From Candidatus Electronema halotolerans (GTDB lineage: Bacteria; Desulfobacterota; Desulfobulbia; Desulfobulbales; Desulfobulbaceae): a DNA stretch of 32,000 nt. Under the pieces are notes generated by a model that saw only the letters and a list, made by a program, of their open reading frames with translations, did not search any database and was not told the DNA's origin. The first letter of the stretch is position 1. Every line of letters starts with the position of its first letter. Made by a program: the position numbers and the translations under genes. Shown in pieces: positions 8,601-22,520 of this stretch. Location: contig OW818675.1 of NCBI GenBank assembly GCA_942493095.1, positions 2,700,001-2,732,000 on the forward strand, in the 5' to 3' direction.

Positions 8601-9098
8601 AAGACAGGCACGGCCAACGACTTCCGCAATGCCGCCTTTCTCGGCTTTGTCCCGGCAGAAACTGCCCCTGAAGGCGAGGCTCTGCTGGCAAATTCCGGCT
8701 ATGCTCTGGGCGTGTATGTGGGCTATGACAACAACGATCCGATGAAAAAAGGCAGCTTGCGGATCAGCGGCTCGCAGGGTGCCCTGCCCGCTTGGATCCG
8801 CATCGCCCAAGCCTTGGTCAGCAAAGAAGGTCTTGCCGACCGCCTGCATCCTGAAACCCTGACCGGCTCCAGCATTCCCCTGCAATATCCTGACACTGGT
8901 CAGCTCTTCATGCCAGTGGATAAAGAAAACGGCGGGCGGATGCGCCGGGGCAAGGCCGGGCTGCGTCAAGATACGGCTCCAGAAGAGCCTGCTGTTCTCA
9001 GTCACGGCGCACCGGGCCGGAACGGCGGTTTTGAGCCGGAGCGCCGCTTCCGGCCTTTCTGGCTGCTCCAGCAGGAAGCCGCTGCGGTTGCTGACTGA
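5685..9098 (+). CDS. class A penicillin-binding protein (GT51 transglycosylase plus transpeptidase), unusually long
   Basis: GT51 motifs (AAEDDQFFHHYGID, RGGSTLTQQTVKNLF). Transpeptidase motifs STMK (~7183-7194), SEN (~7353-7361) and KTGT (~8601-8612). The ORF-track start at 5631 is a TTG. The ATG at 5685 (MRRFF plus a TM segment) is preferred, but the start is uncertain. Confidence 0.85.
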   Translation: MRRFFAVLFRLFFCCAVLGLLTAVCALGWVYYLVTQVPCPEMAPARIAAILGRESPVCYRDGQEKIGVLFDEIHRQYLTYEQLPESFVKAIVAAEDDQFFHHYGIDPPGIAKALLVNWQAGHIVRGGSTLTQQTVKNLFGRSGRSYEAKLKEMLYALRLEQRFSKEKILEFYSNQFYVSGNGHGLGFAARYYFDKAPAELNLLETAFIAGSVKQPSHYDPFIQKDRAAASQAKERAKERAGYVLNRMRKFEMINAAEFAAAQKNKLVFKRGKTSYALNTLMDMVRAGLSSQDLSEVLAEHGIDDIVTSGAKIITTIDKSLQTETLHSLRRQLSSLDVQLRGYDREEVRKEYKEAEGDSEVSEKSFVFATIKNIEQSEPQQPKITVRFADGQPQEGLIDREGLEQMLIALVKHRRGKWAKPGKKDLADLLKRLRVGDKVYVSVREADSSFNEVPLLDLERYPDKLQGAAVVMRQGAVTALAGGMDNRFFNRAVDGKRPMGSTMKPFLYAAALQLGWSPLDLLNNRRNVFVFRDDPYFPRPDHKSPFAHVSMSWAGVKSENVASVWLLYHLTDKLTPAGLLQTAAGVDMTPRDQEDYESFSARMRSNFGLYVTKDDLDQSAYKQALKKAEADFLFEGRQAEYQQWLKIPFGLHYNKFRAGIRRELQKRGLTSEEKSEGWRQLSMLGQGYPDLERSQRALEQYRKYLSQLAAAAVPRFFQQEPPDAADRPSGTMASDEQGRLIFTQSSGLPESWEPVDDQNLRRRLAGMYPAEQDMLWSNVLLEGRVSSGSLAIIKRQMDKERAVLAGQQPYALEVLLKLRDYRVMVGLQYLIRLARAAGVRSDLEPVLSFPLGSNVISLMDSVRMYETLVTGSRWQARLRDEPLQAEAAVPEEEKENIQAGLALIERIETPEGRVIYSRRAAARPVLDRKSSSEVSNILQNVVRWGTGHHAWETVRLPGIGEDKKKSPALPLLGKTGTANDFRNAAFLGFVPAETAPEGEALLANSGYALGVYVGYDNNDPMKKGSLRISGSQGALPAWIRIAQALVSKEGLADRLHPETLTGSSIPLQYPDTGQLFMPVDKENGGRMRRGKAGLRQDTAPEEPAVLSHGAPGRNGGFEPERRFRPFWLLQQEAAAVAD

Positions 9099-9211
9099 GC
9101 TGCTCAGGATTGCTCCAGATCAAGGTGCTGCCGTTTTATCTTCAGGCCGCCGGAAAAGCCAGTCAACTGTTCGGCGCAGCCAATCACCCGATGGCAGGAA
9201 ATCAACGAATT

Positions 9212-10177
9212 ATGAAAACAGCTCTGATCAGCGGCGCATCCGGTCAGGATGGAGCTTATCTCGCCCAACTGCTTTTGGAAAAAGGCTATGCTGTCTATGG
9301 CGCATCCCGCGATGCCCAGACCTGCTCTTTTGCCAACCTGCGGCGGCTGGGCATCCGGGAGCAGGTGCGGCCCCTGTCCTTGGCAGTCAATGATTTCCGC
9401 AGTGTGCTTCAAGCCTTGCAGGCGGCAGAGCCGGACGAAGTCTATAATCTTGCCGGGCAGAGTTCAGTCGGCCTGTCTTTTGAGCAGCCAGTGGAAACCT
9501 TGGAGAGCATCAGCACCGCAGCCCTCAATTTTCTGGAGGCGATCCGTTTCACCGGGCGGCAGATTAAGTTCTACAATGCCGGCTCAAGCGAATGCTTTGG
9601 CGACACTGGCAGCCGGGCGGCGGATGAGGAGACTCCTTTCCGGCCCCGCAGCCCGTATGCGGTGGCCAAGGCCTCAGCCCATTGGATTGTGGCCAACTAC
9701 CGGGAAGCCTACAATCTTTTTGCCTGCACCGGCATTCTTTTCAACCATGAGTCGCCACTCCGGCCTGAACGTTTTGTCACCGGCAAGATCATTGCTGCAG
9801 CCTGCCGGATTGCAGCGGGCAGTCAGAAAAAGCTGTTCTTAGGCAATCTGGACATCCGCCGCGACTGGGGCTGGGCACCGGAATATGTGCAGGCCATGCA
9901 CCTGATGCTCCAGCAAGACATGCCGCAGGACTATGTCATCGCCACAGGGCGCAGCCATTCGCTGGAGGACTTTGTCCGTCTTGCCTTTGAGGAGCTGGGG
10001 CTGGACTGGCGCGAACATCTGGTGGCGGATAAAACCCTGCTCCGTCCGACCGACATCCGCGAAGGCCGGGGCAATCCGGCCAAGGCGGCGCAGGAGCTGG
10101 GCTGGCAGGCGAGGTTCCAGTTGGAGGATGTGGTGCGGGGCATGCTCAAGGGAGAGCAGGAGAAGCAGAGTCAGTAG
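9212..10177 (+). CDS. gmd: GDP-mannose 4,6-dehydratase
   Basis: MKTALISGASGQDGAYLAQLLLEKGY (Rossmann GxxGxxG), NHESPLR, and DWGWAPEYV typical of Gmd. The start was moved to ATG 9212, which follows an AGGAAA. Confidence 0.9.
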   Translation: MKTALISGASGQDGAYLAQLLLEKGYAVYGASRDAQTCSFANLRRLGIREQVRPLSLAVNDFRSVLQALQAAEPDEVYNLAGQSSVGLSFEQPVETLESISTAALNFLEAIRFTGRQIKFYNAGSSECFGDTGSRAADEETPFRPRSPYAVAKASAHWIVANYREAYNLFACTGILFNHESPLRPERFVTGKIIAAACRIAAGSQKKLFLGNLDIRRDWGWAPEYVQAMHLMLQQDMPQDYVIATGRSHSLEDFVRLAFEELGLDWREHLVADKTLLRPTDIREGRGNPAKAAQELGWQARFQLEDVVRGMLKGEQEKQSQ

Positions 10178-10851
10178 GGCCGCTGTCCTGCGACATTGCC
10201 GGGCGGATCATAATGACAGACCCATATTTGTTTTTTACTGGGGCAGACAGAGATCGCGCAGCCCACCCTCCTTGTATTCCGCCAGACAATTTGCGTGTAG
10301 TGGCCGCAGATGTCAGAAGAACAAGTGTTGCTGGCATAGTCATAGTATTGGATTTCGCTGGCCCATCTGTCAACAATTTCAGCGATATGCTTCTGCTGCA
10401 CCTCAGCCCTGCCGTCAGGCCAGACCACTGCCGCCGCCTGATAGATGTTTTCACCGTAGCCGCTGTTACCGTGCTGGATGAGACAGCCGCCCCTGCCGCT
10501 CAGATAATCAGCCCATTCCTGCGCGGTCTGCGCCAGATGCTCTGACCACTGCAAAGGCGGCTCCCAGGCAGCTCTCCGCCAGCGGTTATGCGCGGCCAGC
10601 ACTGCGGTCGGATCAAGGAGGCCAGTTTGTGCCTGCAAATCCGAACCACTGTAATACGGCGCAGCTCCTCTGCCGTAATAGGCGGTGGCTGGAGAGTATT
10701 CCTCAACAGGCGTTGCGCCGTCGTCCTTCACTATCCAGATGCCGTCAGCGTCCTGATAGTAGGAAGCGGCACTGTTCTGGCTGGTGCAGACGGCAAGGGA
10801 GAGCAGGAGGGAAAACAGCGTTATTTTCTGACAAGACAATGAGATTGGCAT
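10171..10851 (-). CDS. secreted CAP / SCP / PR-1-like domain protein
   Basis: Signal-like N-terminus, then HNRWR...PLQWSEHLAQTAQEWADYL...GENIY...GHYTQIVWRNTRRVGCA...VCHYDPPGN, the classical CAP-domain motifs. Confidence 0.8.
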   Translation of the reverse strand: MPISLSCQKITLFSLLLSLAVCTSQNSAASYYQDADGIWIVKDDGATPVEEYSPATAYYGRGAAPYYSGSDLQAQTGLLDPTAVLAAHNRWRRAAWEPPLQWSEHLAQTAQEWADYLSGRGGCLIQHGNSGYGENIYQAAAVVWPDGRAEVQQKHIAEIVDRWASEIQYYDYASNTCSSDICGHYTQIVWRNTRRVGCAISVCPSKKQIWVCHYDPPGNVAGQRPY

Positions 10852-10988
10852 GACTGCTCATGGCTTTCAGGTTGCTGGGAGAACGAACCTGCCCTGTTCC
10901 GCAGTTGGCAACGGCAGTGCAAGCCCCTGGATGCGTATCTGATCATACCCGATCAGGCGCAGGCAGGACAGCGAATTTTGTGCCGGGT

Positions 10989-11013
10989 GGCAAAGAAGCT
11001 GCGCGGGGAAAAA
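10989..11013. repeat. direct repeat copy 1 (GGCAAAGAAGCTGCGCGGGGAAAAA)
   Basis: Read directly. It matches copy 2 at 11122-11145 with 2 substitutions and 1 indel. Confidence 0.6.
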
Positions 11014-11121
11014 TCAGGACAGGCACAGGGACGCGGCATTGCGTGGGCCGTAGGGGCGGCCCTCTGTGGCGACCCGGTATTTCCCGTTATCCCATAATGT
11101 TGCAACCGGACAGGGCCGGGC

Positions 11122-11145
11122 GGAAAAGAATCTGCGCGGGAAAAA
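11122..11145. repeat. direct repeat copy 2 (GGAAAAGAATCTGCGCGGGAAAAA)
   Basis: Read directly, 133 nt from copy 1. Both copies lie in the 311-nt spacer between the caspase gene's stop and the CAP gene's start. Confidence 0.6.
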
Positions 11146-11162
11146 GAGGCAAAAAAACAAAA

Positions 11163-12617
11163 TCACTGTCCGCCGCGCACCAACCGGACCGCGTAGGAGT
11201 TGACGCGAACGTCGTAGTAGGAACCGCTGTAGAGGAAACTGACGAACCACGCGTAGCCCGAGTTGTCAGCATACGGCGAACCGGACCAGACAACAAATTT
11301 TGCCTCAGCATTCGGAAAAGCCTGCTGGTTGATCATCGGTCTTTCCGACCCCTCGTTGCAGCGACCACTCTCTTTGTCTGCCACTCCCTTGCTGCAATGC
11401 ACCAAGGTTTTCAGCTCATCAATGGTTGGCAGCCGCCAATCAGAATATCCTGCATATTCAACATTTTTGAAACGTTCAACCGCCTCATTCCATGTATAGG
11501 TTTTCACCTTTCCCTCTTCACAATTCACCCCTTCCAACCCTTCCAAACAGCGTTTCCACATCAAGCCAGTTTTCGTGTCAGTGACCGTTCCGTCGCCATG
11601 ATCAATATATTGCCCGATTGTTCTGCCTTTCTGCGGCTCAGGCGCGGCATGATGGGCAAAGCAAGTCCGCAGCCACTGCTCCGTGAACAGCAGCGGACTG
11701 ATCTTTGCCCCGGCGAGCTGTTCAATCAGCAGGAAACACTTCTGATCTTTCGCGGTCATCTCCCGCTTGGGGATGGAGAGCAGCTGCACCGCCTCCACGA
11801 CGATGCCGTCAGTCAGCTTGTCCTGCGCGGCCAGCTCAAAGAGCGTTTTCCGGGCCGCCTGCAGCCGCTTCTCCCGCGACTCTGTGCCGCTGCGGGAGAT
11901 GATCAGTTTGCCGCCAGCCTGAAGGTGCCATTGCAGCGGCTCCTGCTGCCCGCCTTCCTCCCGGATTTTCTCGCGCACATATTCGTGCAGCTCGGTCATG
12001 TCAACCCAGCCGTCCTCGTTCCTGTCCGCCTCGCCAGTGCGGATGCCCGCAAGCAGATGCTTGGTGAACAGGCTGTGCTGGTCGCCCTCTTTTTCAAACG
12101 CTTCCTGAACGCCGGTCGAAGCGGTCATGATGAAGGTGCCGCGCCCCTCCGCCATAAGCTGAAGCTGGCCGTCAACGCCGCCTTTGGCAAAATCCTTGCC
12201 CACCGCGCCGCTGTAGCAGCAGTCCAAAATGAGGACTTTTTTCCTGACAGAATACTCGTCAAACAGGGACTTGACCGCTTCCGCCGGAATGGAGGTGGTG
12301 CGGAGCGTTTTCAGTTTGGTGTCCGCAGTCGCAAAGCAGAGCTTCCCGAACAGACTGGTTTTGCCGTGCCCGGAAAAATAGACCAGCACCAGATCATTGC
12401 CGCCCGCATCGGCCAGAACGCTTTCAATTCCCACCAGCACCTCATGGCTGGAATCGTTCTTGAAAACAACGGTCTCGGTGAACCTGCCCAAGTCCGGCGA
12501 GACCAGCAGCTCGTTGAGCGCGTCAACGTCGTTCTCCGGGCAGCGCAGCTCAGTCAGGCCCGGCTCGTCCGGGAACTTGCTGCCAGCTATGAGGATGGCG
12601 AATCGCTTTCCGGCCAT
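11163..12617 (-). CDS. caspase-like peptidase (C14) with an EF-hand-like loop and a C-terminal DUF1566 (Lcl C-terminal, lectin-like) domain
   Basis: N-terminal KRFAILIAGSKF. Catalytic His in YFSGHG (His codon 12366-12368) and Cys in ILDCCYSG (Cys codon 12216-12218). DRNEDGWVDMTE fits the 12-residue EF-hand loop pattern. The C-terminus TGLMWKRC...YTWNEAV...GYSDWRLPTIDELKTL...VRLVRGG matches DUF1566. Confidence 0.9.
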   Translation of the reverse strand: MAGKRFAILIAGSKFPDEPGLTELRCPENDVDALNELLVSPDLGRFTETVVFKNDSSHEVLVGIESVLADAGGNDLVLVYFSGHGKTSLFGKLCFATADTKLKTLRTTSIPAEAVKSLFDEYSVRKKVLILDCCYSGAVGKDFAKGGVDGQLQLMAEGRGTFIMTASTGVQEAFEKEGDQHSLFTKHLLAGIRTGEADRNEDGWVDMTELHEYVREKIREEGGQQEPLQWHLQAGGKLIISRSGTESREKRLQAARKTLFELAAQDKLTDGIVVEAVQLLSIPKREMTAKDQKCFLLIEQLAGAKISPLLFTEQWLRTCFAHHAAPEPQKGRTIGQYIDHGDGTVTDTKTGLMWKRCLEGLEGVNCEEGKVKTYTWNEAVERFKNVEYAGYSDWRLPTIDELKTLVHCSKGVADKESGRCNEGSERPMINQQAFPNAEAKFVVWSGSPYADNSGYAWFVSFLYSGSYYDVRVNSYAVRLVRGGQ

Positions 12618-12973
12618 AACTGTTTCACTGCCTGAAGCGTCTGCTCAATCTGCTCCGGTCTGAGATGCTCGGCCTCAAGTTTCAGCTTCCTGCCATCCGG
12701 CACCTCAAGCTCAATCCGCAGCATTGGCTTCCGCTCAACGTAGGATTTTAGCACCTGCAACAAGGTCACGACCGTGCCACCGGAACCCAAAGCAACAAGA
12801 GCAATCTGGCCAATACTGACAAAATCGCCTTTGGCGCCAAGTCCGCCTGCGGTTTCAACCTGCCGTGCGGTCAGCTCAGTCTCTTGCTCAATGTCATGCC
12901 GCAGCCTGCCTGTCAGCTCGGCAATGTCCTCAGCCGTCATGCTGCTGTCGTGAAGGGAAAGTGTCGCGTTCAT
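12587..12973 (-). CDS. EACC1-like small protein (effector-associated constant component 1)
   Basis: 128 aa. It has an acidic N-terminal part, a Gly-rich hydrophobic core (IGQIALVALGSGGTVVTLLQVL), then a charged tail (RKPMLRIELEVPDGRKLKLEAEHL). This matches the EACC1 family pattern as I remember it. The start was moved to ATG 12973, preceded by AAAGGAGA. The 3' end overlaps the caspase start by 31 nt. Confidence 0.75.
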   Translation of the reverse strand: MNATLSLHDSSMTAEDIAELTGRLRHDIEQETELTARQVETAGGLGAKGDFVSIGQIALVALGSGGTVVTLLQVLKSYVERKPMLRIELEVPDGRKLKLEAEHLRPEQIEQTLQAVKQLWPESDSPSS

Positions 12974-12991
12974 AAACTGTCTCCTTTCATT

Positions 12992-13038
12992 AAAAAGTGG
13001 GGCGGATTTATTTTCAAATAATAAATCCGCCCCCTTTT
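12992..13038 (-). terminator. strong hairpin with flanking T/A runs (bidirectional intrinsic-terminator-like)
   Basis: GGGGCGGATTTATT (12999-13012) pairs perfectly with AATAAATCCGCCCC (13020-13033) across a 7-nt loop. AAAAA lies at 12992-12996 (a T-run on the minus strand) and TTTT at 13035-13038. On the minus strand it lies downstream of panC and the mini-ORF, and 8 nt upstream of the EACC1 Shine-Dalgarno sequence. Confidence 0.6.
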
Positions 13039-13092
13039 GCTTAAAAAGATTGCCAGTCATTGCTTTGGAATAATCAATTCTGCAATAATTCC

Positions 13093-13281
13093 TTAATCCT
13101 GATTTTTTGTCGCATCATAAGCTGAACTGGCTGCATAATCCTGTCCATCCAAATTTTCCTCTACAGAAGAAATTGCAAGCGGCTCATCTGTCCATTGACT
13201 CAATGTCTTGAGGCTCTTGCAGAAATTGAGACTAAAATGCTCCTCAACTTCGGCAATGGTCCATTTGGAGAAAGATTTCAT
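13093..13281 (-). CDS. small acidic hypothetical protein (62 aa), possibly a gene remnant
   Basis: ATG 18 nt after the panC stop, with GGAAG upstream. The patch is low in GC (one 60-nt line counted at 37%). No domain recognised. Confidence 0.3.
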   Translation of the reverse strand: MKSFSKWTIAEVEEHFSLNFCKSLKTLSQWTDEPLAISSVEENLDGQDYAASSAYDATKNQD

Positions 13282-13299
13282 AGCAAAACTTCCGTATGT

Positions 13300-14151
13300 T
13301 TAACTCAGCACCCGCCCATTATCAATCAGTCGCACTTTGCCGCCGATCTTCACCGCCAAAGCCAGCACGGTATCTTTATCCACTTCAGCAACTTCCTGCA
13401 CGGTCTGCTGATGAACAAAGCTGATATAATCCACCGCTGTTTCCGGGAAAGAATGGATGAACTCCCGCAGCGCCGTAGTCAGCTTGGCCGGGCTTCGTTC
13501 ACCCTCAGCAGCCATTTTGCGGGCCAAAGCAAGAGCGCGGGACAGACTGAGCGCGGCCTCCCGCTGCTCCGGGGCAAGATAGCTGTTGCGCGAACTCATG
13601 GCCAAGCCGTCCGCCTCCCGGACAATGGGATGACCGACAATCTCAACGCCCAGATTCAGATCAGCGGTCATCCGGCGGATCACGGCAAGCTGCTGAAAAT
13701 CCTTCTCACCAAAAACCGCCAGATCAGGCCGGATTATGTTGAAGAGCTTGCAAATCACGGTGGCCACTCCGGCAAAATGACCGGGCCGGGACGCGCCGCA
13801 GAGCTGGCTGGTCAGCTCCTTGCCAACCGTCACCGTGGTGCTGTGCCCGGCTGGATACATTGCTGCCGCGTCCGGGGCAAAGAGCACTGCCACGCCTTCG
13901 CCTGCCGCCATTGCCTGGTCGCGCTCAAAATTGCGCGGATAGGTGGCCAAATCCTCCTGCGGGCCAAACTGGGTCGGATTGACAAAAAGACTGACCACGA
14001 CCAAATCAGCGCGGCGGGCCGCCAGCCGCATCAGGCTGAGATGCCCTTCGTGGAAAAAACCCATAGTCGGCACCAAGCCAATGCTGCGCCCGGCCTGCAG
14101 CTGCTCTTTGGCCCAAGCCGTCATCTCGGCTGGCTGGCGGATGATGCGCAT
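13300..14151 (-). CDS. panC: pantoate--beta-alanine ligase
   Basis: LVPTMGFFHEGHLSLM (HxGH motif), FVNPTQF and FGEKDFQQ are typical of PanC. 283 aa. Confidence 0.92.
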   Translation of the reverse strand: MRIIRQPAEMTAWAKEQLQAGRSIGLVPTMGFFHEGHLSLMRLAARRADLVVVSLFVNPTQFGPQEDLATYPRNFERDQAMAAGEGVAVLFAPDAAAMYPAGHSTTVTVGKELTSQLCGASRPGHFAGVATVICKLFNIIRPDLAVFGEKDFQQLAVIRRMTADLNLGVEIVGHPIVREADGLAMSSRNSYLAPEQREAALSLSRALALARKMAAEGERSPAKLTTALREFIHSFPETAVDYISFVHQQTVQEVAEVDKDTVLALAVKIGGKVRLIDNGRVLS

Positions 14152-14871
14152 TTACTTCAGCAACCGGTTCAGGCTGGCTTGGACAATCTCCTGCTCCGGG
14201 AAATTCCGGGGCATCGCGTCGTCATTTTTATTTTTGCCCATTTCTGTCAGGCCCATGTACTGCTGATAGACCTGCACGGCCTTGCTGCTGTCGCCTTTTG
14301 CCTCATAGACCCGGCCCAAGCTGTCCAAGGCCATCGGCTCAAAACCCTTGATGTCTTTGAGCTGCTGATACACGCTTTCCGCCTTGTCAAACTGCTTCTC
14401 CTGCTCATAGAGACTGCCCAAGTTGACCAAAAGCAGCGGTTTGAGAGGGCTTTTCGTCTTCACCTCTTGTTCCGCAGCCGTGAGCCGCTCAATCGCGCCT
14501 TTGAAGTTTTTCTCCTCCTGCTCAAGATGAGCCAAGGCGATGCGGCTCCAGAGCGCGGCAGGCGTGGAGCTATAGTTGTCAGTAATCTTTTGCAAGGCAG
14601 CCTTTTGCTCCTCCGCCTTTTCCAGCTCCACAGCCTGATCATAAGCTGCTGCCGCCTTGTTCAAGACATGATTGCGCCATGTGCTGTACAGGGCCGCTGC
14701 TGTGACCACCACGGCGACCGCGATGACCACTCTCCAGATGATGCGCTGATTTTTTTGAAGAAAGGTGACTAAGGCCGGAGGGAGCTGAAGCTGATCAAGG
14801 ACACCAGGGGTGCCGACAGCCGCTTGATCCTCTAATTTCACATGAAATACGTTCCGCGATTTGTCTGCCAT
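14152..14871 (-). CDS. membrane-anchored TPR-like protein (YfgM-like architecture)
   Basis: One N-terminal TM segment (IIWRVVIAVAVVVTAAALY) followed by helical repeats rich in A/Y/E/K (ALWSRIALAHLEQE..., LGSLYEQEKQFDKAESVYQQ). The stop codon directly abuts the panC start. ATG 14871 is preferred over the TTG at 14889. Confidence 0.65.
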   Translation of the reverse strand: MADKSRNVFHVKLEDQAAVGTPGVLDQLQLPPALVTFLQKNQRIIWRVVIAVAVVVTAAALYSTWRNHVLNKAAAAYDQAVELEKAEEQKAALQKITDNYSSTPAALWSRIALAHLEQEEKNFKGAIERLTAAEQEVKTKSPLKPLLLVNLGSLYEQEKQFDKAESVYQQLKDIKGFEPMALDSLGRVYEAKGDSSKAVQVYQQYMGLTEMGKNKNDDAMPRNFPEQEIVQASLNRLLK

Positions 14872-17940: not shown

Positions 17941-19359
17941 CTAATAGGCGCCCTTGCCGCTGATCATGCAGCCAATAGTCTTGATGATGATCTTCAGGTC
18001 GCAGATGAGCGAGTGGTTGAGCACGTACCAGTCATCCAAATCCACCCGCTCGTCGTAGTTTTCGGTGTCGCTGCGCTTCATCACCTGCCACGGCCCGGTG
18101 ATGCCCGGCTTCATCGACACATAGCGGCCCGCGCTGCCTCGGCCCTTGTAGTATTCGGCCAGCTCCCTGCCGACTATGGGCCGGGCGCCGACCACGCTCA
18201 TCTCGCCCCTGAGCACGTTGATAAATTGGGGAAATTCGTCCAAGCTGGTGCGGCGGAGAAAGCGGCCCATGCGGGTGATGCGCGGGTCGTTCTTGAGCTT
18301 GAAATTGCGCCGCCATTCCTCAGCCAAGGCCGGATCAGCGGCCAGCAATTCCTCTAACTTCTTATCCGCATCCACAATCATGGTGCGGAATTTCAAACAC
18401 TCAAACTCCCTGCCCGTGGCCATGATCCGCCGATGCCGGTAAAGCACCGGCCCTCTGCTGTCTAACTTGATCAGGAGTATGAGCAGAAGCATCAGCGGCG
18501 CGGTCAGCAGAAGAATCAGGATGGAGAAGATGATATCAAAGGCCCGCTTCCAGCTGTGATCCGGGTTGAAGCTGAGAACAAGCATGTCGCCAAGAGACTG
18601 AATTTCGGCATGATGCAGGCCGAAGATGTACAGATCAGGCACTAAGTAAATCTGCGCCCCCAGCTCGCGGCATTCGCGCAGGATCCAGAAAATTTTCCGT
18701 TCAGCCCGCATGGGCAGGGCGATATAGACATAGTCAATATCATTGATTGACAGATAATCACGCAGATCACGGGTGCTGCCGAGCAGCGGCCTGCTGATCT
18801 CGCAGCTCTGCTGTTCCGGCTTGTCATCAAAAAATCCCAGAACCTCAATCCCGGCCCACGGAATTTCCTCAGTCTGCTTGGCCAGCCGCTGCCCCAGCTC
18901 GCCTGCGCCGACAATGACTGCATGGCGGATGTTGCGGCCTTGGGCGCGGTAATGGCGCATGGTCTGCCGGACAGCCAAATGCAGGAGAAAAAGCAGCAAT
19001 GGCGTGGTCAGCGACCAGATGCTGAACACGACTCTGGAATAGCCTTCAGAAACTTTGAAAATGAAGAAATAAAAGAGCAGGAGGCTGACCACTGCCGCCC
19101 ATGCCTTGCAGATGACGAAAAATTCCCGGTAGAGCCGCCAGCCCCGCCATGAGCGGTAGAGCTGGAAATAGTGAAAGCTGACAAAGCAGGCGGCAAAAAC
19201 AATCCCTTCCAGCCAAGTGTAGTAGCAGCTCCACGGCACCTGATACAGCTCCACCAGCAGCCAGAGATAGGCGCAGCCTAAGACGCAGTCAAGGATGTGC
19301 AGCAGCTTGTAGATGGAGGACGTGCGCTGGCGCAGATTCCAAGCAAGGGCGGGCGACAT
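17941..19359 (-). CDS. undecaprenyl-phosphate sugar phosphotransferase (WcaJ/WbaP-type priming enzyme)
   Basis: Multiple N-terminal TM segments, a central Rossmann-like region (VIVGAGELGQRL), and a C-terminal bacterial sugar transferase domain (KRAFDIIFS..., GPVLYRHRRI, DEFPQFINVLRGEMSVVGARP, PGITGPWQV). Confidence 0.88.
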   Translation of the reverse strand: MSPALAWNLRQRTSSIYKLLHILDCVLGCAYLWLLVELYQVPWSCYYTWLEGIVFAACFVSFHYFQLYRSWRGWRLYREFFVICKAWAAVVSLLLFYFFIFKVSEGYSRVVFSIWSLTTPLLLFLLHLAVRQTMRHYRAQGRNIRHAVIVGAGELGQRLAKQTEEIPWAGIEVLGFFDDKPEQQSCEISRPLLGSTRDLRDYLSINDIDYVYIALPMRAERKIFWILRECRELGAQIYLVPDLYIFGLHHAEIQSLGDMLVLSFNPDHSWKRAFDIIFSILILLLTAPLMLLLILLIKLDSRGPVLYRHRRIMATGREFECLKFRTMIVDADKKLEELLAADPALAEEWRRNFKLKNDPRITRMGRFLRRTSLDEFPQFINVLRGEMSVVGARPIVGRELAEYYKGRGSAGRYVSMKPGITGPWQVMKRSDTENYDERVDLDDWYVLNHSLICDLKIIIKTIGCMISGKGAY

Positions 19360-19365
19360 GGCGGC

Positions 19366-20301
19366 TCAGACATTCCAGCCCTGCCAGCCGGGATTCATGC
19401 TCAATTTGCGCGCCCAGCTCCGGGGCAGAAGCTGATGCTGCCGACCCAGCTTGTAAGCGGCGTATTTGCCCAGATTGCGGCAGAACCACTCTGGCAGGAG
19501 CTGATAGTGCCGCTGTTTCAAGAGCAGACGCAGCTCGGAGAGGACATAGTTCCGCCCTGCCCCGCCCGGGCCGCCAAATTGCATGAGCTGCTCCTGCTGC
19601 TGGGCATGAAAGACACCAATGTCAAAATAACGCTTCACGTCCTGCTGGAGGCTGTAGTTGTGGGAATGAAAGACGGTTGCTTCGCTGACATACTGAACAT
19701 GATAGCCCGTTGCCAGCAGTTTGGCTACTGCCAAAGTGTCTTCGCCAAAGAGCAGGCGTTCCGGGAAAAAATTTTGCTGTGCCAGCGGTTCACGCCGCCA
19801 CGCTGCGAATGAGTTGGAAATAAAGATGGTTTTAAAGCCGAAGATCGCTGCATCCTCGCGGCGGCGGAGCTGTGATTGGGCAGGATAATTGAAGTGCCGC
19901 AGATGGGCGCTGAAGAACGTGGCATCCGGCGCAGGCAGTTGGCGGCCATAGGTTGCAGCAAGTTTTTCGTCATGCTGAAACGGCTTGATCAGCAACTCCA
20001 AGGCATCATCTGCCGCAGGCACTGCGTCTTGGGTCATGTAAATGATGATTTCGCCCGCAGTCTGCCGGGCCGCCCAAGTTCTGGTGCCGCCGTGATCAAA
20101 ATCCTCCTGCCTGATTTCCAGCAAACAGAGGCGGGGATTGGCAGCTTGATGCTGCCGGACAATGGCCAGCGTCTCATCCATGGAACCGGAATCAACGATG
20201 AAAATTTTATCCGGCGCAAGGGTCTGCCGGGCCAGCATGGTCAGAACCTTGTCCATCCATCTGCCGCCGTTCCAAGTGGGAATGATCAGCGAAACCGTCA
20301 C
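19366..20301 (-). CDS. family 2 glycosyltransferase (rhamnosyltransferase-like)
   Basis: VSLIIPTWNGG...IVDSGSMDET...DFDHGGTR are GT2 (GT-A) signatures. The GTG start forms a GTGA overlap with the upstream gene's stop. Confidence 0.85.
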   Translation of the reverse strand: MTVSLIIPTWNGGRWMDKVLTMLARQTLAPDKIFIVDSGSMDETLAIVRQHQAANPRLCLLEIRQEDFDHGGTRTWAARQTAGEIIIYMTQDAVPAADDALELLIKPFQHDEKLAATYGRQLPAPDATFFSAHLRHFNYPAQSQLRRREDAAIFGFKTIFISNSFAAWRREPLAQQNFFPERLLFGEDTLAVAKLLATGYHVQYVSEATVFHSHNYSLQQDVKRYFDIGVFHAQQQEQLMQFGGPGGAGRNYVLSELRLLLKQRHYQLLPEWFCRNLGKYAAYKLGRQHQLLPRSWARKLSMNPGWQGWNV

Positions 20302-21140
20302 AGCCGCAGTCCTCGGACAAGCAGATATTTAGTCGCAGCCCAGAGCATGTAGGGTGAGGGGTGTTTTTTATAAAGGAGCAGCTCACTGCGGGCGGCAGTC
20401 AGGCGCAGGTGATAGGGGATGCGCTGTCGGTCCTGCTGCCAGCCCCGGCAATGATGGACGCGAATCTCCGGCAGATAAACGAGCTGCCAGCCTTGTTGTC
20501 GCAGCCGCAGACAGAGTTCAATATCTTCTTTGTAGAGAAAGAAATCCGGGTCAAAGACGGCCTTGCCGGGCAGGGGTATCGACTTCAGCGCAGTTTTCCG
20601 GCAGCAGAGAAAAGCCCCGCAAAGAGCCGGAACGTGCTCGCGCCGATTGTGCTGGCCGCAGTCTAACTGGCCTTGGTCGCGGTCATGCCAGCGGCCAAAC
20701 CATGTTCTGAACACGCCAGTGGAGTCAAGCAGGCCGGTGGGCTGATTACCTTGCATGTCAAAGCCGAGCAGCCTGCCGCCGATACAGCCGACTTTCTCAT
20801 TCTCAGCAAGAAAGGCAAGTGCTCGCTCGATGCTGTCTGGGGCAGGAAAAGCATCAGGGTTGAGAAAAAGGACGACATCCGCATTTTCTTGAACCGCCTG
20901 CCAGCCGAGGTTGTTGGCTCTGCTGAAGCCGATGTTTTCCTCCAGCAGCACCGTGCAGCCGTTCTTCTCCTGATATGGCCGCAAATACGTTGTGTTGTCT
21001 GAGCCGGAATCAACAATGACCGTCGCCGCAAGCCGTGCGGTCTGCCGCTCCAGCGCAGCCAAGCAGCGGCCCAGCACAGCTTGGGCATTATGAGTGACAA
21101 TGATGACAGCGATTCTGCTGCTGCTCCGGGAATTCAACAA
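20298..21140 (-). CDS. family 2 glycosyltransferase
   Basis: IAVIIVTHNAQAVLGRCLAALERQT...VIVDSGSDN...FLNPDAF are GT2 signatures. The only candidate starts are TTG codons at 21140 and 21137, so the start is uncertain. Confidence 0.8.
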   Translation of the reverse strand: MLNSRSSSRIAVIIVTHNAQAVLGRCLAALERQTARLAATVIVDSGSDNTTYLRPYQEKNGCTVLLEENIGFSRANNLGWQAVQENADVVLFLNPDAFPAPDSIERALAFLAENEKVGCIGGRLLGFDMQGNQPTGLLDSTGVFRTWFGRWHDRDQGQLDCGQHNRREHVPALCGAFLCCRKTALKSIPLPGKAVFDPDFFLYKEDIELCLRLRQQGWQLVYLPEIRVHHCRGWQQDRQRIPYHLRLTAARSELLLYKKHPSPYMLWAATKYLLVRGLRL

Positions 21141-22438
21141 TGAAGTTTTTTTGCTTGCAATTTGTTTCGATTAAACAAATATCCCCAACCTGATGCTGAA
21201 ATCACAGACAATGCAGGAACTATCGGAACTCTAAATCTTCCATAGGCTTCACCTCCTACGGAAAATAATGTAAAATAAAAAATAACAACAAGAAACAAAT
21301 AGATCACTTGTCTTTGATGCGGAAACAAATAGTTTTTTAACGCAATGACAGAACCTAAAATTAAACCTGCGTACAGAAGAAACAGATGAACAGCTCTCCA
21401 AAATATTATTATCTTAGAAGGAAAAGACTCTTCTTTTATTTTGAAATTTAAAAAAGATGTCATGTCGAAATACATTTCCATGCCCCCTCTGATACCCTGC
21501 CACAATGTAACAAGCAGATTATTTTTTAATATTTTTATCCCTTCATTTCTTTCCCATATTGCTAACTCGCCATCATTTAATCGCTCTTTTTCTTGTTTTT
21601 CAATCGCTCTTTGTTTTAATTCATCACGAACATCTTTAAAGTCCCTTTTTTCAATAAAAGAAATATTCCAAGCAGCCCTGTACAGAAAAATATCCTTTGA
21701 AGAAATCGTTGTGAAAAAGAATACTCCTGTATGAAAATAATTCCTAACTGACCATAATATCGGCATGGACGCTGAAGATAAACAAAAAAAACAAATCAAC
21801 ACGGATATATATTTCTTTTTTTCTCTTAAGGCGAAGAACATCCAGAGTGCAATAGGAACAAAAGCAAGGAAAGAGATTGGACGACATAATGATAAAACAG
21901 AGAGCCATCCTCCTAAAACAACTACAGTTCTCAAATCAAACAGAAACTGCTTATCCTCCTGTTGACACCAATCAACAAGCTTTATTAAAAATATACACAA
22001 AATCACTGTAAATAGAGTGTCAGAAAGAAGAAAATTAGCAGTAAGCATACTTTGAAAGTCAAGAGCTACAAAAAGCGCGCAAATAACCGCTGGAAAAAGA
22101 TCGAATATACGTCGAGATACAGCGTAGGATATCAACACGGCAGCAACTGAAATAAAAACCTGAATCAATGCCATGACAGCATTGCTGGAAGATATATATT
22201 TATGGATAAAAGCAATGAAAATTGGATATACTGGTGTTCTCGAAAAGCTTGGAAATGTTCCGTTTTCGATGAGCTGCATACCAGGATGCAGATAAGAGCT
22301 TGTGTCCGGCTGGATGAAATAACTTGGTTTTCCAAGAAAATCAAACCAAATATACAGCCTTGCCGCAAGCGCAAGCAAGAGGATAAGCAGCAATATAATA
22401 TTCTCTTTTCTCAAGGAGAAGCTTTTCATCAGCACCAT
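21134..22438 (-). CDS. polytopic membrane glycosyltransferase, GT-C fold (ArnT/PMT family 39/83-like), low-GC gene
   Basis: 434 aa with ~10 or more hydrophobic segments. An early periplasmic-loop acidic motif (IQPDTSSY) is typical of GT-C enzymes. AGGA lies 5 nt upstream of ATG 22438. The gene's GC is far below the flanks. Confidence 0.7.
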   Translation of the reverse strand: MVLMKSFSLRKENIILLLILLLALAARLYIWFDFLGKPSYFIQPDTSSYLHPGMQLIENGTFPSFSRTPVYPIFIAFIHKYISSSNAVMALIQVFISVAAVLISYAVSRRIFDLFPAVICALFVALDFQSMLTANFLLSDTLFTVILCIFLIKLVDWCQQEDKQFLFDLRTVVVLGGWLSVLSLCRPISFLAFVPIALWMFFALREKKKYISVLICFFCLSSASMPILWSVRNYFHTGVFFFTTISSKDIFLYRAAWNISFIEKRDFKDVRDELKQRAIEKQEKERLNDGELAIWERNEGIKILKNNLLVTLWQGIRGGMEMYFDMTSFLNFKIKEESFPSKIIIFWRAVHLFLLYAGLILGSVIALKNYLFPHQRQVIYLFLVVIFYFTLFSVGGEAYGRFRVPIVPALSVISASGWGYLFNRNKLQAKKLHC

Positions 22439-22520
22439 GATATTCCTGTTTTTTTAGTGAACCGACATAACCGAAGCTAAGAACTTTTCGTTAAAAAACG
22501 ACCGAGCAGCTCATGTAGAC

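Follow-up and report, generated by a model that had tools for sequence, protein, structure and literature searches.

A portable EACC1-caspase gene pair with a predicted retroelement-diversified sensor in a cable bacterium: a candidate cell-death cassette

Two overlapping genes on the minus strand of a 32,000-nt stretch of the Candidatus Electronema halotolerans genome (contig OW818675.1, positions 2,700,001 to 2,732,000; in the following the whole stretch is called the window and positions are counted from its first nucleotide) encode a 128-aa EACC1 protein (effector-associated constant component 1) and a 484-aa protein with a caspase domain, a helical linker and a C-terminal Lcl_C/DUF1566 domain. 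The host is a cable bacterium of the Desulfobulbaceae and lives as a multicellular filament. We read the pair as a self-contained conflict cassette in which a receptor-caspase, with its specificity written by a diversity-generating retroelement (DGR), would free a pore-forming EACC1 fragment, kill the cell and protect the filament; we assign a probability of about 0.6 to this reading. The 484-aa protein would be a cytoplasmic receptor-protease displaying about 19 hypervariable residues on its Lcl_C domain, written by a DGR located elsewhere. Binding of a danger ligand or, most likely, an invader-derived one by Lcl_C would activate the N-terminal caspase (H84/C134), probably by oligomerization, and the caspase would cut the co-translated EACC1 within a disordered, conserved loop (residues 42–51, containing GGLGAKGD) after D50 or K48. 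The freed fragment of about residues 51–128, beginning with a Gly-rich hydrophobic segment, could then oligomerize into membrane pores, and the death of a single filament cell would be altruistic death of the abortive-infection type. For the question whether cable bacteria, which form centimetre-long, electrically conductive filaments, kill their own cells deliberately, the locus provides a concrete and testable candidate, in which a sensor-caspase is combined with a loop predicted to be cleaved and a fragment (51–128) predicted to form pores. The deposited genome lists both genes as "hypothetical protein", and names can now be given to them.

The family assignments were obtained by profile searches. 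With 35.4 bits (gathering cut-off 23.6) the 128-aa protein matches PF19953 (EACC1) over profile positions 5–106 of 107. The 484-aa protein carries a Peptidase_C14 domain (PF00656, E=3e-17), reaches 172.1 bits against the NCBIfam model NF047832, "caspase, EACC1-associated type" (cut-off 140, profile positions 3–210 of 211), and its C-terminus matches Lcl_C/DUF1566 (PF07603) with 105 bits at a cut-off of 34.9. The EACC1, caspase and DUF1566 assignments of a preliminary description of the locus, made from its sequence without database searches, were thereby corroborated above the curated cut-offs. The caspase dyad, described there as intact, is in fact invariant, as H84 (SGHG) and C134 (DCCYSG) are unchanged across 38 homologues. 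A structure model of the caspase protein (pLDDT, the predicted local confidence score, 79) gave MALT1, metacaspases and caspases as top Foldseek matches; the search was run with the whole model, yielded caspase-domain matches only and is silent on the lectin domain. Since a sequence search with the Lcl_C domain against PDB chains revealed no relative, its C-type-lectin-like fold rests on Pfam and the literature. PADLOC, which had no EACC1 model, returned only a weak generic caspase match.

An NTPase partner is missing. No STAND, AAA+ or GTPase component is fused to the protease or found elsewhere in the window, and no NTPase, TIR, trypsin, vWA or reverse transcriptase (RT) gene was detected in the whole 32 kb. 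The preliminary description had correctly noted that STAND/AAA NTPase, TIR, trypsin and vWA partners are missing nearby; its view that a pair of only two genes without NTPase is unusual, however, could not be maintained. The EACC1 system was defined as a two-gene system with a 5' EACC1 gene and a 3' caspase gene carrying any of about 50 C-terminal domains (Kaur et al. 2020), and the missing NTPase is therefore the norm. For the same reason we rejected a new system type based on its absence. The locus is not assigned to the NTPase-dependent conflict systems (STAND/Avs, MoxR-vWA ternary). It matches the definition of Kaur et al. 2020 exactly, with 5' EACC1, 3' caspase, variable C-terminus and a multicellular host; in that study the systems are strongly enriched in multicellular bacteria, with 650 of 671 organisms. 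Different from the published set, the window system comes from a Desulfobulbaceae cable bacterium, and DUF1566/Lcl_C is not named among the C-terminal domains in the text of Kaur et al. 2020.

The cleavage step is modelled on the only experimentally tested homologue. The statement of the preliminary description that no EACC1 member has a demonstrated mechanism is outdated. The caspase domain of KrAvs12 from Ktedonobacter racemifer cuts KrEACC1 into fragments of 5.7 and 7.1 kDa with Asp49 as putative site, the C-terminal fragment alone is toxic, liposomes are permeabilized by cleaved EACC1 only, and neither EACC1 nor the catalytic Cys152 is dispensable for toxicity (Evans et al., bioRxiv 10.1101/2025.11.14.688446). 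For a cut after Asp49 we computed 5727 and 7174 Da, exactly the published fragment masses. Alignment of the KrEACC1 sequence, taken from the supplementary table of Evans et al., with a profile of cable-bacterial EACC1 proteins (hhalign) placed window residues 54–96 on KrEACC1 50–91, the toxic portion (probability 83%, E=9e-6), and Asp49 falls at the border matching window residues 50–53. Both EACC1 proteins consist of an acidic N-terminal part of about 5.3–5.7 kDa, a loop and a Gly-rich hydrophobic segment. The gene order, EACC1 5' of a caspase-type protease, is also shared, and in an alignment across the dyad C134 lies opposite the experimentally essential C152.

In the AlphaFold2 (AF2) model of the window EACC1 (mean pLDDT 75.5) the elements follow in the order beta1, helix 1, beta2, loop, beta3, helix 2, beta4, beta5, helix 3. 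The loop 42–51 is the sole internal segment with a pLDDT below 50. At the same time it contains the most conserved motif of the family: among 30 EACC1 homologues residue 48 is K or R in all 30, G49 is invariant and D50 is found in about 90%. Cleavage after D50 would yield computed fragments of 5.3 and 8.7 kDa. In the adjoining hydrophobic segment the small residues G55, S64 and G66 are conserved. Judged by analogy, the cleavage and pore mechanism of KrEACC1 likely transfers to the window pair. The C-terminal fragments differ in length and charge, the one of the window with 78 aa and a pI of 5.8 being acidic and that of K. racemifer with 65 aa and a pI of 9.5 basic. A Foldseek search of the EACC1 model against the PDB gave no significant match (best E=0.0075), only a weak, generic ferredoxin-like alpha/beta similarity, and EACC1 matched no gasdermin in Pfam or PADLOC. 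The proposed logic, in which a protease frees a latent pore former from autoinhibition, is that of bacterial gasdermins with caspase-like proteases and of eukaryotic caspase-gasdermin pyroptosis, but the 128-aa EACC1 has no sequence or fold relationship to gasdermin.

The C-terminal domain accounts for the sensor part of the proposal. Among DGR targets, DUF1566 makes up the class "CLec2" (Wu et al. 2018, PMC5758913). The preliminary description saw in it an odd substitute for a death-like adaptor and overlooked that it is a hypervariable ligand-binding domain of the DGR type. The scaffold WSGSPxAxxSxxAWxVxFxx(G/S)xSxxxxRxxxxAVRLVRGGQ is common to the window protein and more than 12 homologues and paralogues, and only the positions marked x vary. 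The variable codons differ at positions 1 and 2 and retain C or T at position 3, as seen in the window (TTC CTC TAC AGC GGT TCC TAC TAC GAC GTT CGC GTC AAC TCC TAC), while the scaffold codons are near-identical between species. The entropy of the 19 variable positions is 2.66 bits compared with 0.33 bits for the interleaved scaffold and 0.84 bits for the rest of the domain. Pairwise differences at the three codon positions stand at 133:107:73 for the variable region (VR) and at 81:35:197 for the part of Lcl_C upstream of it (chi-square p=9e-24, computed from sequence pairs that are not independent). Together with the flank described below, this pattern makes it well supported that the last 41 Lcl_C codons represent a typical DGR variable region that has undergone DGR action in the past.

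Outside the VR the Lcl_C domain has, with the mean entropy of 0.84 bits given above (window residues 336–443), lower variability among homologues than the caspase (1.22 bits, residues 1–230) and the linker (1.86 bits). At the DNA level, too, it agrees better with other loci (77–84% identity compared with 64–70%). As the lectin module is more conserved than caspase or linker, concerted evolution or exchange between paralogues is suggested.

A related, complete retroelement could be found in metagenomic data. Scanning metagenomes with a pattern of the template repeat (TR) type, composed of the scaffold codons with AAY at five variable codons, returned a single contig (RCNA010001981.1, 1–4671; locus L008). 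It holds an Lcl_C target, bAvd, TR, RT and a second Lcl_C target, in which bAvd matches PF22296 with 44 bits (cut-off 40) and the RT shows the motifs IGNLTSQ and YVDD. The TR encodes VWSGSPNADNSDNAWNVNFNNGNSNANNRNNNNAVRLVRGG, with Asn (AAC/AAT) at most variable positions of the scaffold. In the two VRs of this contig 19 of 33 and 17 of 33 template A positions are changed and none of the 90 other positions; this DGR is apparently active. The RT of L008 shares 74% identity with a partial RT from Ca. Electrothrix sp. AR3 (L010), where the RT is likewise followed by a target, of 173 aa. In the heterologous comparison of the window VR with the L008 TR, mismatches were found at 20 of 33 template A positions and at 8 of 90 others (Fisher p=1e-8).

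The flank of the VR also connects the window to these elements. A 26-nt segment, GGCGGACAGTGATTTTGTTTTTTTGC, which extends from the VR end over the stop codon, is identical in the window, at both L008 VRs, in the E. laxa locus L003 and at the RT-adjacent target of Electrothrix sp. AR3. The L008 TR departs from it right after GGCGGA and thus displays the relationship expected of an initiation of mutagenic homology (IMH) and its template counterpart IMH*. A search for a GC-rich inverted repeat 3' of the IMH gave nothing significant, and no stable or conserved hairpin is formed there (fold z-scores 0.79, −1.12 and 0.49); inverted repeats at this place occur in about 34% of DGRs and are not obligatory (Wu et al. 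2018, PMC5758913). Another DGR was observed on a 2.92-Mb ENA contig (L011, 6925–11824), with an Lcl_C target, an Avd-sized open reading frame (ORF), an RT and a short Lcl_C target. Transposase genes (DDE_Tnp_1, rve) surround it and genes of the toxins AbiEii and ParE are close by, a setting suggestive of a mobile defence island.

Several points weigh against the proposed working of the window pair. The mechanistic study by Evans et al. (2025) is a preprint, and its system is distant: the caspase domains of KrAvs12 and the window protein share 19% identity, and of the two EACC1 proteins only the C-terminal halves align. In KrAvs12 the protease is joined to an Avs12 STAND ATPase as the sensor of phage tail-connector proteins, whereas the window protein has a lone Lcl_C domain with its VR, which raises the question how a lectin domain on its own would activate the protease. 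For P1 both D50 and K48 come into consideration, because K/R48 is conserved more strictly than D50 and the best structural matches of the protease are Arg-specific paracaspases and metacaspases. The pair is presumed to be expressed, but a strong hairpin is situated directly upstream of the EACC1 gene and no sigma-70-like promoter was found in 10700–13400. With respect to the retroelement, the L008 TR is, in view of the eight mismatches outside A, a close relative of the template of the window and not the cognate one. A generic repeat search and an A-tolerant scan for a TR in the window gave self-matches only, tblastn with the L008 RT and Avd found neither in the window, L001–L007 or L009, and none of the eight homologous loci has a TR, RT or Avd within 10 kb. 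Among the best 120 of 7904 RT matches none was attributed to Ca. Electronema halotolerans, a result that is uninformative.

Given that no TR, RT or Avd was found near the pair, the VR may be a frozen relic, written by a DGR that has been lost from the genome or that recognizes this copy no longer, which would leave a pair with fixed specificity or one in decay. Of the alternatives this one is to be taken most seriously, even though we regard it as unlikely. Apart from the missing components in the 32 kb and among the RT matches, it is favored by the closest homologue, L009, which lacks the conserved IMH-like flank and thus indicates that copies do escape DGR control. A decayed pair is, however, hard to reconcile with two intact ORFs, an invariant dyad and the retention of all scaffold residues, and the non-coding 26-nt flank has stayed identical to that of bona fide DGR targets. 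Furthermore, at least three more proteins with the same VR scaffold are found in the genome to which the window belongs, and for non-phage DGRs there are documented cases of remote targets, separated from the RT by more than 100 kb (Wu et al. 2018, PMC5758913). If the window VR is still serviced by an active cognate DGR, as our proposal presumes, it would be such a remote target, since no TR, RT or Avd is found in the window or near the homologous pairs. The sequence GCGTGGNNNGTCNNNTTCNNNNNNNNNNNNTCCNNNNNNNNNNNNCGCNNNNNNNNNNNNGCGGT can be used as query for the cognate TR in the 3.2-Mb chromosome of Ca. Electronema halotolerans (locus tags GCAAIG_).

The distribution of the pair was investigated by comparison of related loci. 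Close homologues of the 484-aa protein come almost only from cable bacteria (Electronema, Electrothrix). EACC1 is located directly 5' of the caspase gene in eight of eight related loci (L001–L007, all from other cable bacteria, with E=1e-39 to 1e-45, and L009), and the caspases end in Lcl_C or FGE-sulfatase. None of the genes flanking the window pair is shared with these loci; all other neighbors differ. A conserved housekeeping pair was rejected on this basis, and the earlier proposal of an EACC1/caspase conflict module stands. In L009, the closest homologue with 84% identity, the pair shows the same 31-nt overlap and is inserted between the gene of a tail-specific protease and nadA. DNA homology between the window and L009 starts at 12985, just upstream of the ribosome-binding site, extends to 11169 and resumes in a short non-coding stretch (11000–11081). 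With these limits the pair is a portable cassette of about 2 kb, located at about 11000–12985 on the minus strand.

Some observations concern the edges of such cassettes. The motif GGGTCGCCACAGRGGG 3' of the caspase gene was considered as a dispersed repeat and rejected, as its only other occurrence is in L009. In the 310-nt non-coding gap from the caspase stop codon to the neighboring CAP-domain gene, the two copies of a direct repeat of 31 nt (10982–11012 and 11115–11145), which are 87% identical and 133 nt apart, flank the stretch shared with L009. In L004 (Ca. Electronema sp. PJ) the pair lies between clpX and lon, and a direct duplication of 745 nt from the 3' part of clpX (95.7% identity) is found on both sides of it, at 8661–9405 and 12311–13054. 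As a result clpX is complete upstream and present as a truncated copy downstream; such a footprint is unusual for a cassette insertion.

The same biochemistry of caspase and EACC1 pore could serve programmed death within the filament instead of antiviral defence, in order to fragment or disperse it, to form ghost cells, to respond to stress or to recognize kin and non-self. The filamentous host and the enrichment of EACC1 systems in multicellular bacteria (650 of 671 organisms) fit this possibility. Ghost cells and uncharacterized caspase genes have been noted in cable bacteria, and the question of deliberate cell death was asked there (PMC12163305); in addition, stress-response roles were raised by Evans et al. 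for EACC1 modules fused to DnaK. We consider such a role rather improbable, as continuous diversification of the binding tip suits a fast-evolving foreign target better than an endogenous signal, and as the patchy occurrence of the cassette at differing chromosomal sites with several paralogues per genome resembles that of defence genes. The only tested homologue also reacts to a phage protein.

Least of all do the data agree with EACC1 as a constitutively membrane-inserted partner or sensor and the caspase as effector, acting on cellular or viral proteins or on itself to free its C-terminal domain: this assignment, put forward in the preliminary description and in line with Kaur et al. 2020, who read the hydrophobic segment as a single transmembrane (TM) helix of a membrane sensor, can draw on the conserved 25-residue Gly-rich segment (grand average of hydropathy 1.75) and the intact dyad, but it inverts the experiments on KrEACC1, where the caspase is the sensor-activated processor and EACC1 the effector that is cut, toxicity is lost on deletion of EACC1 and confined to its C-terminal fragment, and liposomes leak with cleaved EACC1 only. 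In the AF2 monomer the supposed TM segment is, moreover, part of a soluble alpha/beta domain (strand 54–60, helix 65–81) following the disordered conserved loop, which is a better fit to a latent pro-toxin, and the hypervariable lectin tip is a binding surface and not an effector. No support was obtained for the gating of the caspase by Ca suggested along with this model.

Returning to the DGR-written receptor-caspase, related proteins indicate that its architecture varies. Among the best 120 homologues about half end in Lcl_C, about 25 in an FGE-sulfatase domain, the other classic DGR lectin domain, and a few in WD40 repeats. In the genome of the window this Lcl_C tail recurs in at least three other proteins (P0011, P0044, P0101); P0044 has two Lcl_C domains with one VR each and no caspase. 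P0004 and P0013 bear a TM helix between caspase/linker and Lcl_C and show the same VR scaffold; because this helix precedes Lcl_C, their sensor is probably periplasmic. An N-terminal signal peptide ahead of the caspase was found in P0101 and P0088, again with the same scaffold. It is conceivable, if unlikely as a whole, that cable bacteria keep a repertoire of cytoplasmic, TM (P0004, P0013) and signal-peptide (P0101, P0088) receptor-caspases with one VR scaffold and one IMH, continually rewritten by a single trans-acting DGR, in which the cytoplasmic and TM forms would be wired to EACC1 pores. Such an anticipatory, antibody-like set would decide on the suicide of single cells and might be the origin of ghost cells.

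EACC1-caspase pairs, including DGR-linked versions, are already known. In DGR lectin sensors of multicellular bacteria (Kaur et al. 2020; Dore et al. 2024, PMC10907252) and in CLec2 targets such as Legionella LdtA (PMC5758913) the VR lies at the C-terminus of a CLec/DUF1566 domain as in the window, and AAC-type variable codons, an IMH-like flank, multiple remote targets and a protease or NTPase N-terminal to the lectin are shared as well. Unlike the window pair, the systems of Kaur et al. 2020 and Dore et al. 2024 belong mostly to the MoxR-vWA-VMAP ternary or STAND types and have lectins of the FGE-sulfatase type. The window protein is a predicted cytoplasmic protease fusion, LdtA a lipoprotein of the cell surface; Dore et al. 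2024 mention neither EACC1 nor cable bacteria. Added here are the instance from a cable bacterium, the DUF1566 tail as a putative remote DGR variable region with a defined IMH, the predicted cleavage loop and the apparent mobility of a cassette of about 2 kb. With this pair, the EACC1 mechanism established by experiment would be extended to a sensor without NTPase, with a specificity apparently written by a DGR elsewhere.

The features of the locus are compiled in Table 1. The two ORFs and their overlap, as given in the preliminary description, were confirmed by ORF calls, the ribosome-binding site and the GenBank annotation. The 484-aa protein is 100% identical to the deposited protein of Candidatus Electronema halotolerans. 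For EACC1 the longest ORF comprises 157 aa (start 13060); the 128-aa form starting from the ATG at 12973 is the deposited one (100% match).

Table 1. Features of the EACC1-caspase locus in the window (coordinates in nt of the 32,000-nt stretch).
Feature	Coordinates	Strand	Basis or remark
Caspase-linker-Lcl_C gene, 484 aa, GCAAIG_12085	11163..12617	-	predicted sensor-protease; ORF and domain searches
Caspase (Peptidase_C14) domain	11937..12608	-	PF00656, NF047832, invariant dyad, Foldseek, KrAvs12 alignment
Codons of caspase H84; C134	12366-12368; 12216-12218	-	SGHG; DCCYSG
Four-helix linker, residues ~245-320	11658..11885	-	AF2 secondary structure; TM helix follows in some homologues (P0004, P0013)
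Lcl_C/DUF1566 domain, CLec2 class of DGR targets, predicted ligand sensor	11175..11591	-	PF07603; class according to Wu et al.
Putative DGR-type VR, last 41 codons of Lcl_C	11164..11292	-	aligns to L008 template repeat
VR hypervariable core, 19 NNC/NNT codons	11193..11273	-	entropy, codon-position pattern
IMH-like element, GC-rich VR end across the stop codon, includes GGCGGACAGTGATTTTGTTTTTTTGC	11149..11192	-	3' flank identical in L008 VRs, L003, L010
Non-coding segment 3' of the pair, common to L009, likely 3' cassette limit	11000..11081	-	blastn, 74% identity over 93 nt
EACC1 gene, 128 aa, GCAAIG_12090	12587..12973	-	predicted latent pore-forming effector; PF19953, ribosome-binding site/ATG, annotation
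EACC1 residues 1-41 (beta1, helix 1, beta2), predicted autoinhibitory N-terminal part	12851..12973	-	AF2; analogy to the non-toxic KrEACC1 N-terminal fragment
EACC1 loop 42-51, AGGLGAKGDF, predicted caspase cleavage site (after D50 or K48)	12821..12850	-	low pLDDT, conservation, KrEACC1 border
Gly-rich hydrophobic segment, residues 51-75, FVSIGQIALVALGSGGTVVTLLQVL, start of predicted toxic fragment	12749..12823	-	hydropathy 1.75; family core
Overlap of EACC1 3' end and caspase 5' end, 31 nt, predicted translational coupling	12587..12617	-	ORFs; recurs in L009
Ribosome-binding site AAAGGAG, 7 nt before the EACC1 ATG	12981..12987	-	read in the sequence
Hairpin 25 nt upstream of the EACC1 ATG, 14-bp perfect stem, terminator-like on both strands	12999..13033	.	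5' cassette edge

With a hairpin upstream and no sigma-70-like promoter in the searched region, expression of the EACC1-caspase operon may depend entirely on read-through from panC or on an unrecognized promoter type. An Rfam scan of 10000–14500 gave no match. The end coordinate 13038 proposed earlier for the module corresponds to no start codon and was assigned to the hairpin. A low-GC patch (13001–13500, 44.6% GC), located between panC and the hairpin, contains an orphan 62-aa ORF (13093..13281, minus strand) without Pfam match. Its part 13040–13300 is absent from the closest homologous locus, L009, and the patch may be a remnant of the cassette insertion.

Of the neighborhood described before, with the pair between gmd and panC next to a low-GC patch, panC and the patch were recovered. 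The direct neighbor on the other side is a CAP-domain gene (10171..10851, minus strand), which intervenes between the pair and gmd. The ORFs of gmd (9110..10177, plus strand) and of the CAP-domain protein are convergent and their 3' ends share 7 nt (10171–10177). The remainder of the window is of housekeeping character, with queA, an SLT-LysM transglycosylase, PBP1, gmd and the CAP-domain gene on one side of the pair and, beyond panC on the other, genes for a TPR protein, a methyltransferase, gltX, a glycosyltransferase cluster, cbiG, an ABC transporter and moaA. A strongly AT-rich stretch at 21000–22500 (33–41% GC) corresponds to a membrane protein of 434 aa (21134..22438, minus strand) that belongs to the PMT_2 family of glycosyltransferases. 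Its gene is located at the end of a sugar-transferase/GT2 cluster (17941–22438) and looks like a horizontally acquired polysaccharide-modifying gene.

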